The notes: generated from the letters alone by a model not told the origin. 64,000 nucleotides of DNA from Escherichia coli (GCA_005400705.1 GCA_005400705.1_4079.1), one strand, 5' to 3'. Numbered from the stretch's first letter, positions 31,487-35,761 are shown. A program made the numbers and translations.

Positions 31487-33805
31487 ATGATTAACGTAAC
31501 CAAGCGTAATGGAATGAAAGAGCCGTTATCATTGGATAAGATCCATCAAATTTTATTTTTCGCTGCTGAAGGGTTAAGTGGTATTTCCGTTTCTGAAATT
31601 GAAATCCGTGCACAGCTTCAGTTTTATGAAGGTATTGAAACCAGTACTATTCATGATATTCTAATAAAAGCAGCAGCAGAACTTATTTCTGAAGATACGC
31701 CTAACTATCAATACGTTGCTGGAAGATTATTAAACTATAGTATTCGTAAGCAAGTATATGGACAGTATGACCCAATTAAGTATACTGCTCATCTTCAAGA
31801 AATGGTAGATACTAAAATATATGATCCTGAAATTTTGGAGAAATATACTCTTCAAGAAATTGAAGAGCTTGGACGTTACATCAAACATAAACGTGATGAT
31901 AAATTCACTTATGTTGCTATGCGTCAGTGGGAAGGAAAGTATCTATATAAGAATCGCGTAACTAAGAAAATCTACGAAACTCCACAAATGGCATATATGA
32001 CCATTGCAGCAATCATCTTTATGGAGTATGATCGCTCTGTACGTATGTCTTATGTTAAGAAGTTTTATGATGCTGTTAGTAACTTTGATATCAGTCTCCC
32101 GACTCCTATCATGGCTGGTCTACGTACCAATACACGTCAGTTTAGTTCTTGTGTAGTACTAAACGTTGGAGATAGTCTAGATAGTATTGGTTCTTCTAAC
32201 CACGCTATACTACGTTATATTTCCCGTAAAGCTGGACTTGGTATCAATATGGGCCGCATTCGTGCTCTGGACTCCGAGATTCGTTCAGGTGATGCAGTAC
32301 ACACTGGTTTGATTCCTTTCATTGCATCAACTGCTAAGACCGTTAAAAGCTGCTCTCAAGGTGGTGTACGTGGTGGTGCAGCAACAGTCCACTTCCCATT
32401 GTGGCATTTGGAATTTGACAATCTTGTAGTACTGAAAAATAACAAAGGTACTGAGTTCAACCGTGTTCGACAACTTGACTATTGTTTCCAAGTGAACAAA
32501 ACACTATATCAACGTTTAGTGGATGGCAAGAATATTACATTCTTTAGTCCTAATGAAGTTCCTGGGCTATATGAAGCATTCTGTTCTAACCTAAAAGAAT
32601 TTGAAAAGCTGTACAAGAAGTATGAAGCTGATCCAAGCATTCGTAAAAAATCTGTATCTGCTGTTGAAGTATTCAGTACTCTAATGACTGAGCGTGCAGA
32701 AACTGGTCGTATCTATATTCAAAACATTGACCATGCAAACACACACTCAACCTTTATTGAATCAATTGCACCAATTGAACAATCCAACTTGTGTCAAGAA
32801 ATCGCACTACCATCTGTGCCATTTGATGATATTAATACTGGCGAAGGTTTGATTAGTCTATGTACTTTGAGTGCAATCAACTGGGGTAACTTTGACCGCC
32901 CAGAAGATATGGAAACTGCTTGTGATCTTTCTGTACGTGCTCTTGATTCTCTATTGGATTATCAAGACTACCCAGTAGTTCATGCTGACCGTGCAACTAA
33001 AATGTATCGCCCATTAGGTGTTGGTATCATTAACTTTGCATACTTCCTTGCTAAACGTGGTTTACGTTATAATGAAGCAGCATTAGAAACAGTTAACGAG
33101 TGGGCTGAAGCATGGTCTTACTATCTAATTAAATCTTCTGTACAGCTTGCTAAAGAGAAAGGTAAGTGTGAAGGTTTTGACACACTAAAATATGCTAAAG
33201 GTATTCTACCAATTGATACCTATAAAGAAGATATTGATGCGTTGGTATCTCCTGAACTAAAACAAGATTGGGAAACATTGCGTCAGGATATCAAACAATA
33301 TGGTATTCGTAACGCAACAACTATGGCACTGATGCCAGCAGAAACTAGTGCACAAATCAGTAACAGTACTAATGGTATTGAGAAACCTCGTTCACTTGTA
33401 ACTAAGAAACTATCTAAAGATGGTATTCTTAAACAAGTCGTTCCTGAAATCAATAAGTTGAAAAACAAATATGATTTACTATGGGATCAGAAAGATAACA
33501 TCGGTTATCTACAAATCTGTGGTGTTCTTCAGAAATACATTGACCAAAGTATTAGTGTGAATACCAGTTACAATCCAGCACACTTCCCTGATGGTAAGTT
33601 GCCAATGTCAACACTACTAACTGAACTAATGTATGCATACAAAGTTGGTTTGAAAAATCTGTATTATCATAATACTAATGATGGTTCTGATGAAGTGGAT
33701 GTTGAGAAAGTACTAAAAGAAGCTGCAAAACCAGAATCAGGACAGTTTGTGTTGCCTACACTACCTGACTTAGATGAAGGTGATTGTGATAGTTGTAAGA
33801 TCTAA
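31487..33805 (+). CDS. nrdA: ribonucleotide reductase class Ia large subunit
   Basis: N-terminal ATP-cone (VTKRNGMKEPLSLDKI), active-site CSQGGVRGG region, C-terminal CDSCKI. Confidence 0.9.
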   Translation: MINVTKRNGMKEPLSLDKIHQILFFAAEGLSGISVSEIEIRAQLQFYEGIETSTIHDILIKAAAELISEDTPNYQYVAGRLLNYSIRKQVYGQYDPIKYTAHLQEMVDTKIYDPEILEKYTLQEIEELGRYIKHKRDDKFTYVAMRQWEGKYLYKNRVTKKIYETPQMAYMTIAAIIFMEYDRSVRMSYVKKFYDAVSNFDISLPTPIMAGLRTNTRQFSSCVVLNVGDSLDSIGSSNHAILRYISRKAGLGINMGRIRALDSEIRSGDAVHTGLIPFIASTAKTVKSCSQGGVRGGAATVHFPLWHLEFDNLVVLKNNKGTEFNRVRQLDYCFQVNKTLYQRLVDGKNITFFSPNEVPGLYEAFCSNLKEFEKLYKKYEADPSIRKKSVSAVEVFSTLMTERAETGRIYIQNIDHANTHSTFIESIAPIEQSNLCQEIALPSVPFDDINTGEGLISLCTLSAINWGNFDRPEDMETACDLSVRALDSLLDYQDYPVVHADRATKMYRPLGVGIINFAYFLAKRGLRYNEAALETVNEWAEAWSYYLIKSSVQLAKEKGKCEGFDTLKYAKGILPIDTYKEDIDALVSPELKQDWETLRQDIKQYGIRNATTMALMPAETSAQISNSTNGIEKPRSLVTKKLSKDGILKQVVPEINKLKNKYDLLWDQKDNIGYLQICGVLQKYIDQSISVNTSYNPAHFPDGKLPMSTLLTELMYAYKVGLKNLYYHNTNDGSDEVDVEKVLKEAAKPESGQFVLPTLPDLDEGDCDSCKI

Positions 33806-33822
33806 TTAAAGATCCCGCTTCG

Positions 33823-33847
33823 GCGGGATTTATTTCATAGGAGTGAT
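33823..33847 (+). terminator. rho-independent terminator
   Basis: atcccgc-ttcg-gcgggat hairpin + T-rich tract. Confidence 0.55.
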
Positions 33848-33850
33848 ATA

Positions 33851-34624
33851 ATGAAAGTTGACTATCGTAGTCCAATAGATATTGGATTCATAGAAGAATT
33901 TTGGGATGATCTTGATATGGATATGATTGTTCGCTATCAAAAACTCCCACAAGACTTTATAAAAAAACATTTTGATAAAATGAACCCTAATATGTTAGTT
34001 CGATATCAAACAATGTCAACTGATTTTCTTAAAGAAAAGTGGGAGTGGTTTGATAAAAATGTTATTGCACAATATGTAGTCATGCCAATGGAATTGATTA
34101 TGGAAAAATGGAATGACTTCAAAGATAACTTTCTTGATACTGTTGCTAAGTATCAAAAACTAACACAAGATTTTATTCAAGACAAATGGAATGACTTTGT
34201 TGAATTTAGAGATGGTGTAATGTCGGAAATTTCCAGATATCAAAAACTAACACTTGATTTCATTAAAGATAAATGGGATTATATTGATAAGAACTATATT
34301 TCATATTACCAAACTTTAACGGTTGATTTTATCAAAGATAATATTACTGAATTAAATGTTGCAGCAGTATCAGCATTTCAAATACTATCGGATGATATAC
34401 GCTCATTGATGGGATTAGAAGCACCAGCAAAAACTATTACTGGTAATCAAATACTCGCGTTGGACCCATGTGCCGATGGTATGGCTCGATACAATGCTCA
34501 TACACCTGACAATAATAAAGTTTTGACATGGAATGAACTACTTACACTACACTTGGGTTCACAAGAAGGAATTAGTGATATCCATTGGCTATCATATAAA
34601 TTGGGTCATAAAATTAATACATAA
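33851..34624 (+). CDS. tandem-repeat protein (about seven 24-aa xRYQxLxxDFIKxKW units)
   Basis: Repeats IVRYQKLPQDFIKKHF / VRYQTMSTDFLKEKW / AKYQKLTQDFIQDKW / ISRYQKLTLDFIKDKW / YYQTLTVDFIKD. Confidence 0.55.
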   Translation: MKVDYRSPIDIGFIEEFWDDLDMDMIVRYQKLPQDFIKKHFDKMNPNMLVRYQTMSTDFLKEKWEWFDKNVIAQYVVMPMELIMEKWNDFKDNFLDTVAKYQKLTQDFIQDKWNDFVEFRDGVMSEISRYQKLTLDFIKDKWDYIDKNYISYYQTLTVDFIKDNITELNVAAVSAFQILSDDIRSLMGLEAPAKTITGNQILALDPCADGMARYNAHTPDNNKVLTWNELLTLHLGSQEGISDIHWLSYKLGHKINT

Positions 34625-34636
34625 AGGAATATATAT

Positions 34637-35761
34637 ATGTCAGTTTTCAAAATTAATGAGAAGTCTCACCTAGAAAAGAATATGTTTTTTGATGAAAGTG
34701 TTGATATCCAACGCTTTGAAAGTAACAAATACTCTACACTTGAAAAACTAACAGAACAACAGAAAAGTTTCTTCTGGACACCAGGTGAAGTTGACGTATC
34801 TAAAGATAAAATTGATTTTGCTAACCTCAATGATTCTGAGAAGCATATCTTTACATCAAACTTAAAACGTCAAATCCTTCTTGATTCAGTTCAAGGTCGT
34901 GGTCCTAACCTAATGCTACTACCATATGCATCTCTACCTGAACTTGAAAACTTTATTGAAACATGGGCGTTCTTTGAAGGTGCTATTCATAGTAAATCAT
35001 ATACACATATTATTCGTAACATTTATCCTAATCCATCTGAAGTTTTTGATACTATGTTGGACATTCCAGAAATCACTGATTGTGCTGCTGATGTTTCAAA
35101 ATACTATGATGACCTTGATGAACTCGGAACATTGTATCGTGCATTGGGTGAAGGCACTCATACTGTTAATGGTAAAACTATTGAAATTAATATGTATGAC
35201 CTAAAGAAAAAACTATGGTTATGTTTGAATAGTATTAACATTCTTGAAGGTGTTCGTTTCTATGCTAGTTTTGCTTGTTCATGGGCATTTGCAGAGAACA
35301 ACCTCATGGAAGGTAATGCAAAGATTATCCGTCTAATTTGTCGTGATGAAAACCTTCATCTAGCAGCAACACAAATGATTTTACGTCTTCTAAAGAAAGA
35401 AGATCCAGATATGGTAAAAATTGCCGAAGAGTGCTATGATGAAGTACTGGAAATGTTTATGTCTGCTATTCGACAAGAAGAAGCCTGGGCAGATTTCCTC
35501 TTTAAAGATGGTTCTATTATTGGATTGAACTCTGAAATTCTTAAACAGTATGTCCGCTGGATTGGTTCTAAGCGTATGACGGCACTTGGTATCAAATGTC
35601 CATATACTGTATCCAAGAGTAACCCACTACCGTGGACTGAACACTGGGTAAGTGGTAGTTCTGTACAGGTAGCACCACAAGAAACTGAAATCAGTTCTTA
35701 TATTATTGGTGGTATTGTGAATGATATCCAAGTAGATACATTCACACCATTCAAACTATAA
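34637..35761 (+). CDS. nrdB: ribonucleotide reductase small subunit
   Basis: Ferritin-like ExxH pairs (EGAIHSKSYTHII; RDENLHL); follows nrdA. Confidence 0.85.
   Translation: MSVFKINEKSHLEKNMFFDESVDIQRFESNKYSTLEKLTEQQKSFFWTPGEVDVSKDKIDFANLNDSEKHIFTSNLKRQILLDSVQGRGPNLMLLPYASLPELENFIETWAFFEGAIHSKSYTHIIRNIYPNPSEVFDTMLDIPEITDCAADVSKYYDDLDELGTLYRALGEGTHTVNGKTIEINMYDLKKKLWLCLNSINILEGVRFYASFACSWAFAENNLMEGNAKIIRLICRDENLHLAATQMILRLLKKEDPDMVKIAEECYDEVLEMFMSAIRQEEAWADFLFKDGSIIGLNSEILKQYVRWIGSKRMTALGIKCPYTVSKSNPLPWTEHWVSGSSVQVAPQETEISSYIIGGIVNDIQVDTFTPFKL

Follow-up and report, generated by a model that had tools for sequence, protein, structure and literature searches.

A dispensable gene for a predicted tryptophan-repeat solenoid protein between nrdA and nrdB of an Asteriusvirus-like jumbo coliphage

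The nrdA-nrdB interval and its repeat gene

The window analyzed here is the whole 64,000-nucleotide (nt) stretch from Escherichia coli GCA_005400705.1, and the subject is a single gene lying between nrdA and nrdB, which encode the large and small subunits of class Ia ribonucleotide reductase (RNR). The product is a tandem-repeat protein that, judging from both its sequence and its predicted fold, is a member of the viral "tryptophan repeat gene family" known from entomopoxviruses, giant viruses, and jumbo phages. The gene is dispensable for growth on laboratory hosts, and its product is not a homing endonuclease. A 4.4-kb region was 97.4 to 97.7% identical at the DNA level to Escherichia phages BF17, EC.P1, fEgEco12, Ecwhy_1, WPEC3, Turkey3, and WPEC5, and this identity marks the source of the 64-kb window, on sequence grounds, as an Asteriusvirus-like (Rak2-like) jumbo coliphage.

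The gene starts with an ATG and encodes 257 amino acids (aa), with a mass of 30.5 kDa, an isoelectric point (pI) of 4.9, and one invariant Cys. It fills the gap that the nrdA stop (33805) and the nrdB start (34637) leave between them. The first-pass annotation, made by a model from the sequence alone, had placed a repeat protein between these two genes, and the open reading frame (ORF) was found at exactly 33851 to 34624 on the plus strand. Upstream, nrdA (31487 to 33805, plus strand) is a 772-aa ORF; downstream, nrdB (34637 to 35761, plus strand) is a 374-aa ORF. Both flanking genes shared 97 to 98% DNA identity with genes of BF17 and its relatives that most records annotate as the large and small subunits of aerobic RNR, and their proteins were each 97 to 99% identical to the annotated counterparts in 121Q and vB_Ec-M-J. 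On the metagenome contig L010, the NrdA ortholog matched the Pfam models ATP-cone, Ribonuc_red_lgN, and Ribonuc_red_lgC, and the NrdB ortholog matched Ribonuc_red_sm.

Between nrdA and the repeat gene lies a G+C-rich hairpin, ATCCCGC-TTCG-GCGGGAT (33812 to 33829, plus strand), followed by TTATTTC, so that the T-run extends to 33836 and the whole resembles a terminator or attenuator. The stem was picked up by a terminator scan, although it was called on the minus strand. An equivalent hairpin and T-run stood directly 3' of nrdA in every relative, whether the repeat gene was present or absent, and the UE-S1 record annotates this element as a terminator. By analogy with the proposal for the T4 mobE terminator (PMC2988022), the conserved hairpin may attenuate read-through into nrdB.

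An AGGAG ribosome-binding site (RBS) can be read from the sequence at 33839 to 33843 (plus strand), 7 nt before the ATG of the repeat gene, and an RBS is annotated at the equivalent place in UE-S1 and fHe-Yen9-04. At the other end, the AAGGAA RBS of nrdB (34624 to 34629, plus strand) overlaps the final base of the TAA stop of the repeat gene (34622 to 34624). The distance from this stop to the nrdB ATG is 12 nt, and a spacer of 9 to 19 nt was present in all orthologous loci. Since the repeat gene follows the nrdA hairpin and ends 12 nt before nrdB, it is probably cotranscribed with nrdB in an early or middle nucleotide-metabolism unit. The window contained no Rfam families and no tRNAs, and a motif scan of all six frames detected no paralog of the repeat gene, which is therefore single-copy here.

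Repeat architecture, predicted fold, and family membership

When the 257-aa protein was compared with itself using BLOSUM62, similarity peaked at an offset of 23 residues (z = 8.55), with harmonics at 46 and 69; in 500 shuffles, the maximum z had a 99th percentile of 3.97. In addition, a profile-profile comparison (hhalign) of residues 10 to 99 with residues 100 to 197, for which the profiles were built with ten orthologs, gave a probability of 99.3% (E = 3e-20), and a shifted second register gave 96.3%. Formal analysis thus supported the periodicity that had been read from the sequence by eye. The "about seven" repeats of the first-pass annotation proved to be one partial and seven full units, and its consensus was reproduced by the ortholog alignment as [RK]-Y-Q-x-L-[TSP]-x-D-F-I-x-[DE]-K-W-x-x-[FI]-D-K-N-x-I-[SA]; its 24-residue unit, however, has to be corrected to a canonical 23.

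The repeat array (33878 to 34441, plus strand; residues 10 to 197) would form the body of an alpha-solenoid. It consists of a partial unit, R0 (residues 10 to 27), followed by R1 (28 to 50), R2 (51 to 73), R3 (74 to 99), R4 (100 to 128), R5 (129 to 151), R6 (152 to 174), and the degenerate R7 (175 to 197), with lengths for R1 to R7 of 23, 23, 26, 29, 23, 23, and 23 residues. Tandem Repeats Finder detected no tandem repeats at the DNA level; the repeats are therefore old and visible in the protein only. A short natural allele was also encountered on a 76-kb metagenome contig (L009, Logan SRR21707705; 4001 to 4510), where the protein (P0005, 169 aa) lacks four units. This deletion is in frame and runs from FIKEKW to FIKEKW, and intragenic recombination therefore alters the repeat number.

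The array is followed by a conserved nonrepeat C-terminal domain (34442 to 34621, plus strand; residues 198 to 257), which was unrelated to the repeats in profile-profile comparison and had no Pfam match. It is the best-conserved region among the orthologs, with a mean conservation of 0.85 versus 0.78 for the repeats. Its motif, P206-C207-x-x-G210..R213..W227-N228..H234..D243-x-x-W246-L247, is made up of positions that are invariant or nearly so, H234 being replaced by Tyr in two distant homologs. Six short metagenomic proteins (P0068, P0106, P0107, P0144, P0146, and P0254) carry this PCxxG domain after canonical repeats, and the domain appears to have been undescribed so far.

The PCxxG domain also ends a second, very divergent paralog family of Mimasvirus and Eneladusvirus phages, exemplified by BF_0522 of Serratia phage BF (BLASTP E = 8e-8). 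Members of this second family (BF_0522, GAP32 K4FBA1, and CBB A0A1L2CVN3; close to phrog_27418) combine degenerate repeats with the same PCxxG..WN..H..D.WL domain. They differ from the gene studied here in sharing only about 30% identity with it and in lying elsewhere, near the genome end and near HNH endonuclease genes; the family is absent from Asteriusvirus phages. In Serratia phage BF (L004), BF_0522 (1949 to 2749) stands directly upstream of an annotated HNH endonuclease gene, and a second HNH gene follows about 2 kb further downstream.

For structure prediction, a first AlphaFold2 run with six close orthologs reached a predicted local distance difference test (pLDDT) score of 62.6, and because of this score the fold search made with that model was disregarded. 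A 60-row alignment was then composed of the protein-database orthologs, C-terminal fragments of the six short proteins, and 46 envelope-trimmed repeat arrays. The short PCxxG proteins were misplaced by MAFFT when they were used whole, and fragments beginning 28 residues before the PC motif were aligned correctly. With this alignment, the model reached a pLDDT of 96.3 and a predicted template modeling score of 0.87, and all five models exceeded 93.

The helical solenoid that had been proposed from the sequence is supported by this prediction. Each repeat is modeled as a pair of short helices, x-D-F-I-x-x-K-W and x-N-x-I-S-x-Y, joined by the Q-x-L-S/T loop, and the segments Y-Q-x-L, D-F-I, K-W, and I-S of each unit are buried. 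The units are predicted to stack as an alpha-solenoid, for which the leucine-rich repeat variant protein (LRV; 1LRV, 24-residue unit) and HEAT/importin-beta, both short-period alpha-solenoids, are among the closest known systems. Residues 198 to 257 are modeled as four helices and a two-residue bridge, with Cys207 at the N terminus of helix 208-217, and this small all-helical domain is predicted to close the solenoid. No structural analog was found for these approximately 60 residues.

A Foldseek search of BFVD, a collection of predicted viral structures, matched the model, itself a prediction, with probability 1.0 to AMV029 (E = 1.1e-10), MSV027 (E = 6.2e-10), and MSV205 (E = 7e-9). Further matches at probability 1.0 were to MSV029 and other entomopoxvirus tryptophan-repeat proteins; to proteins of Pithovirus, Orpheovirus, and Marseillevirus; to gp558, gp560, gp562, and gp563 of phage G; and to the second paralogs of CBB, GAP32, and fHe-Yen9-04. 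Across the entomopoxvirus members (MSV027, MSV029, MSV205, AMV029, and AMV254), the 23-residue tandem repeat and the predicted fold were the same as in the phage protein (E = 1e-10 to 2e-4, probability 1.0, about 25% identity, template modeling score about 0.6). They are likewise multirepeat proteins with variable terminal domains. Unlike the phage gene, which is single-copy in the window and fixed at the nrd locus, they belong to eukaryotic viruses, usually number several per genome, and have no PCxxG domain.

Sequence searches led to the same family, and we assign the protein to it because the sequence matches and the predicted-fold matches agree. By tblastn, the protein matched gp045 of Bacillus phage BpSp, which its annotation places in the tryptophan repeat gene family, with E = 1e-11. 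Distant matches with E values of 4e-12 to 5e-6 were found in Listeria phage LPJP1 (nine places), Bacillus phage G (five places), and BpSp. Among the PHROGs, phrog_3532 was matched with E = 3e-37, its function being listed as unknown, and the C terminus matched phrog_27418 more weakly. Searches of Pfam, NCBIfam, and PDB sequences with the repeat protein returned nothing significant, and a Pfam search of the family members found no model for the repeat itself. The name of the family originates in entomopoxvirus genome annotation.

The family is large: when 1.84 billion representative proteins were searched exhaustively with HMMER, at least 1,467 clusters (50% identity) matched at E ≤ 1e-3. Among 285 retrieved family sequences, the core motifs were spaced by 23 residues 1,184 times, and the next commonest spacing occurred only 118 times. 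The canonical reading of the family, ...W-x-x-I-S-x-Y-Q-K-L-S-E-D-F-I-R-E-F-x-D-K-V-D-W..., agrees with the phage protein, in which tandem units of about 23 residues likewise carry a conserved aromatic residue or Trp and a Q-x-L-S/T-x-[DE]-F-I core. In metagenomes, the commonest architecture consisted of canonical repeats followed by a DUF7666-like C-terminal domain with the motif FQYQY...C.C....SFG (P0009, P0014, P0018, P0019, P0194, P0200, and many others); P0021 has its DUF7666 domain at the N terminus. A 330-aa protein (P0249) with seven near-perfect canonical repeats (QKLSEDFIREFQDKVNW...) was also found on a 137-Mb scaffold of the spider Argiope bruennichi (NCBI) and could be either a contaminant or an insertion of viral origin.

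The jumbo-phage members (phage G gp556 to gp563, BpSp gp045, and the LPJP1 paralogs; phrog_3532) resemble the protein in sequence and fold, and all are uncharacterized. They differ from it in lying in tandem clusters or beside replication genes rather than between nrdA and nrdB and in carrying other terminal domains. For phage G, gp556 and gp560 have been named as tryptophan repeat family members with a function called unknown (PMC12484599), and AMV254 of Amsacta moorei entomopoxvirus (AmEPV) has been described as combining tryptophan repeats with an F-box (PMC7728225). A literature search on the repeat motif returned only unrelated papers, and the CBB genome paper does not discuss CBB_304. 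The nrdA-nrdB gene is thus a previously unremarked member of a named but uncharacterized family.

With a pI of 4.9, a net charge of about -12, and an elongated repeat architecture, the protein could be thought of as a DNA mimic, that is, an acidic solenoid that, like Ocr, ArdA, and the pentapeptide proteins, blocks restriction or other DNA-binding proteins by imitating DNA. We consider this scarcely credible and rejected it on charge, which is modest beside that of true DNA mimics. Moreover, acidity is not a trait of the family, in which the median pI is 5.6 and the 10th-to-90th-percentile range extends up to 8.7, and no similarity to known mimics was found.

Ancestry, loss, and the question of mobility

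Full-length orthologs with 64 to 84% identity were found by tblastn in phage records of UE-S1, JNE01, and EJP2 (Asteriusvirus); CBB and XbC2 (Mimasvirus); fHe-Yen9-03 and fHe-Yen9-04 (Eneladusvirus); and XaC1 and Kaldavass. In every ortholog-bearing phage, the gene sits between nrdA and nrdB; a synteny check of this interval in relatives found the gene at that site, an empty site, or, in GAP32, an endonuclease-like gene. It is absent from vB_Ec-M-J and TH47, with flanks 97.4 to 97.5% identical to those in the window (99.1% for the vB_Ec-M-J NrdA protein), and from Turkey5, although its NrdA shares 99.5% identity with NrdA of JNE01, which carries the gene. It is also absent from 121Q, PBECO4, and about 20 other Asteriusvirus phages, from Serratia phage BF, and from the pEa_SNUABM phages. 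Because many sister phages carry no homolog at all, the gene is dispensable, as stated above.

Where the gene is present, its divergence follows that of the locus. The identity matrices of the orthologs and of NrdA ran parallel (Pearson r = 0.90) and contained the same groupings, and 109 of the 257 residues were invariant across nine phages. The ratio of nonsynonymous to synonymous substitution (dN/dS) was 0.04 to 0.06 in six ortholog pairs, and the values for NrdA and NrdB fell in this range as well; wherever it has been kept, the repeat gene is therefore functional.

The empty sites carry scars. In 121Q, vB_Ec-M-J, and Turkey5, the last codons and the stop of the ORF (AATAYATAA) are preserved directly before the nrdB RBS. 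Turkey5 also keeps the RBS region and the first codons with a mutated start, reading GATATAATAAATTTTG versus GATATAATGAAAATTG in JNE01. The junctions vary by lineage, with nrdA-nrdB gaps of 52, 54, 60, and 94 nt. Since remnants of the ORF ends remain, these sites are deletions rather than virgin targets. We infer that the gene was already at the nrdA-nrdB junction in the common ancestor of the Asteriusvirus, Mimasvirus, and Eneladusvirus phages, was inherited with the locus, and was deleted independently in several sublineages. This history of ancestry and repeated loss is favored because of the correlation with NrdA, the low dN/dS, and the scarred empty sites.

Between the window and UE-S1 (L011), synonymous divergence (dS) was about 2.4 for the repeat gene, which is near saturation, versus 0.65 for nrdA and 0.98 for nrdB. 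This excess suggests that recombination has made the locus mosaic. Recombination is plausible at the nrd locus because homing-endonuclease-like genes split nrdA and nrdB in relatives and because mobE of T4-like phages promotes coconversion.

The first-pass annotation had pointed out that the nrdA-nrdB gap of T4-type phages classically hosts mobile genes, and this holds beyond T4 itself. In T4, mobE occupies the gap and promotes coconversion of flanking markers (PMC2988022). In Cronobacter phage GAP32 (L005, 2710 to 3447), a 245-aa MUG113/DUF723 gene, an endonuclease according to RefSeq, lies exactly at the nrdA-nrdB site, and the close relative CBB (NrdA 96.8% identical) carries the repeat gene there, an apparent gene replacement at a hot spot. 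This GAP32_299 endonuclease showed no similarity to the repeat ORF. On contig L009 (1041 to 7020), a NUMOD4/HNH_3 gene interrupts nrdA and a DUF723 gene interrupts nrdB, and in fHe-Yen9-04 (L013, 3784 to 5951) nrdB is split by the 245-aa gene g299; these split RNR genes look like homing-endonuclease or intron invasions.

With such neighbors, the repeat gene itself might be a degenerate or novel homing endonuclease, or the cargo of one, in a hot spot like that of T4 mobE. Its presence or absence among near-identical phages would agree with this, as would the mobile genes at the same site in T4 (PMC2988022) and GAP32, the splitting of nrdA and nrdB by HNH and DUF723 genes in relatives, and the hint of recombination in the UE-S1 comparison. 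However, no match to HNH, GIY-YIG, LAGLIDADG, or PD-(D/E)XK nucleases was found in Pfam (E ≤ 10), PHROGs, NCBIfam, or PADLOC, so the statement in the first-pass annotation that no GIY-YIG or HNH motif is present withstood the search with profile hidden Markov models. The predicted fold is all-helical and not that of a nuclease, the gene tree follows that of NrdA, the empty sites still contain remnants of the ORF ends, and the strong purifying selection is unlike that on decaying homing-endonuclease genes. The mobile-element explanation is thus largely refuted, and we regard it as very improbable.

A comparison with the known occupants of this niche leads to the same distinction. T4 mobE, Hef in U5, and GAP32_299 likewise lie between RNR genes, depend on upstream transcription, and are patchy among relatives (PMC2988022). 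By contrast, mobE is an HNH nuclease that spreads by nrdB cleavage (PMC2988022), and the repeat protein has no nuclease motif, follows the phylogeny of the locus, and is lost by deletion.

The constancy of the position could instead point to RNR itself. As an RNR-linked accessory, the solenoid would bind NrdA, NrdB, or the complex for deoxynucleoside triphosphate (dNTP) synthesis and serve as a scaffold, an assembly aid, or a regulator of stoichiometry. The gene holds the same position across at least three genera, even though their NrdA proteins share only 72 to 77% identity, the short spacer to nrdB is found everywhere, and purifying selection equals that on NrdA and NrdB, as a conserved phage-encoded partner predicts. 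Nevertheless, we consider this role unlikely. The gene has been deleted repeatedly while nrdA and nrdB stayed intact (121Q, vB_Ec-M-J, Turkey5, and Serratia phage BF), and in GAP32 the gap is taken by an endonuclease-like gene unrelated to it. In other phages, the genes of this family show no linkage to nrd genes, as seen in the tandem cluster of phage G, in BpSp gp045, which lies beside a helicase gene, and in metagenome contigs. Nor was there any Pfam or NCBIfam match to NrdI, NrdH/glutaredoxin, or YfaE (flavodoxin, thioredoxin, and 2Fe-2S ferredoxin domains).

Proposed function and significance

Elsewhere, the family has expanded. In huge-phage contigs and in phage G, paralog clusters of two to seven tryptophan-repeat genes were found, for example, on a Logan contig (SRR19753085; L019, 287 to 3498), on a 322-kb JGI contig (L017, 6001 to 12497), and in phage G (L025, 836 to 5393). 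The cluster on L019 lies 2 kb from a gene of the Acb2/Tad1-hairpin family, and on another contig (L018) the distance between a family member and a Tad3 gene is 4 kb.

These neighborhoods bear on an anti-defense or host-takeover role, in which a host protein with an immunity or housekeeping function would be targeted by the solenoid and modified or inactivated by the C-terminal Cys/His/Asp domain. In favor of such an effector, the gene is accessory and patchily distributed; the family has expanded into paralog clusters in huge phages; and the conserved residues of the C-terminal domain, namely the invariant Cys207 at a helix N terminus together with H234 (Tyr in the two distant homologs), D243, R213, and N228, could be involved in its action. 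On the other hand, neither PADLOC nor Pfam gave an enzymatic match, dN/dS is about 0.05 with no sign of diversifying selection, the C-terminal domain is mostly helical and without a structural analog, and the neighborhood evidence comes from two contigs only. We therefore judge this role improbable. The only match to a PADLOC or Pfam model for defense or anti-defense proteins, one to HEC-01B in PADLOC (13 bits, E = 0.012), was rejected as noise because canonical members of the family do not reproduce it.

The reading that we favor, with somewhat better than even confidence, is that of a dispensable, nonenzymatic protein-protein adaptor. The solenoid surface would bind one specific conserved partner, which may be a host or a phage protein, and the C-terminal domain would cap the solenoid or couple it to a second partner. 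Viral proteins composed of repeats and a terminal domain, such as the poxvirus ANK/F-box proteins and AMV254 of AmEPV, are said to act as adaptors. This role is proposed because of the general behavior of solenoid repeats, the modular design of the family, in which repeats are joined to DUF7666, the PCxxG domain, or an F-box (AMV254; PMC7728225), the paralog clusters, and the two anti-defense neighborhoods. In addition, profile searches recognized no catalytic module in the protein, and the low dN/dS speaks for a conserved partner and against a rapidly coevolving host target.

Several points weigh against an adaptor. The mechanism is argued entirely from architecture and analogy, and the same dN/dS of about 0.05 carries no arms-race signature. 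The C-terminal domain could harbor a small catalytic or metal site, since an invariant Cys stands at a predicted helix N terminus and is accompanied by conserved His (Tyr in two homologs), Asp, Arg, and Asn residues. The strict nrdA-nrdB position and the tight spacing to nrdB could reflect a link to RNR instead. Finally, no convincing promoter was found, as the scan for sigma-70-like promoters gave 15 sites versus 21.3 expected in shuffled sequence. Because the scan fell below the shuffled expectation, a 9/12 sigma-70-like site upstream of nrdB (34585 to 34614) was not counted as evidence.

A bolder possibility, to which we give a small chance, is that the repeat solenoid and the PCxxG..R..WN..H..D.WL domain together constitute a functional module. 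It would be either a regulator of the RNR/dNTP complex or a targeting solenoid fused to a minimal active or metal site (Cys-His-Asp) by which a conserved host protein is disabled. If either were true, this would be the first function for a repeat family found in jumbo phages as well as in giant eukaryotic viruses.

Here, a suspected mobile element is removed from the window: the nrdA-nrdB gene is an old, dispensable passenger of the locus. As in T4-like phages, the nrd region of Rak2-like phages is also a hot spot at which deletions and endonuclease invasions occur. Nature provides near-isogenic pairs with and without the gene, that is, BF17 and the window phage versus vB_Ec-M-J and TH47, and JNE01 versus Turkey5. 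All of these grow on E. coli, and such pairs are a convenient route to a phenotype. For the tryptophan-repeat family as a whole, which is large and common to jumbo phages, entomopoxviruses, pithoviruses, and other giant viruses, a confidently predicted model of a two-helix, 23-residue solenoid is now available.

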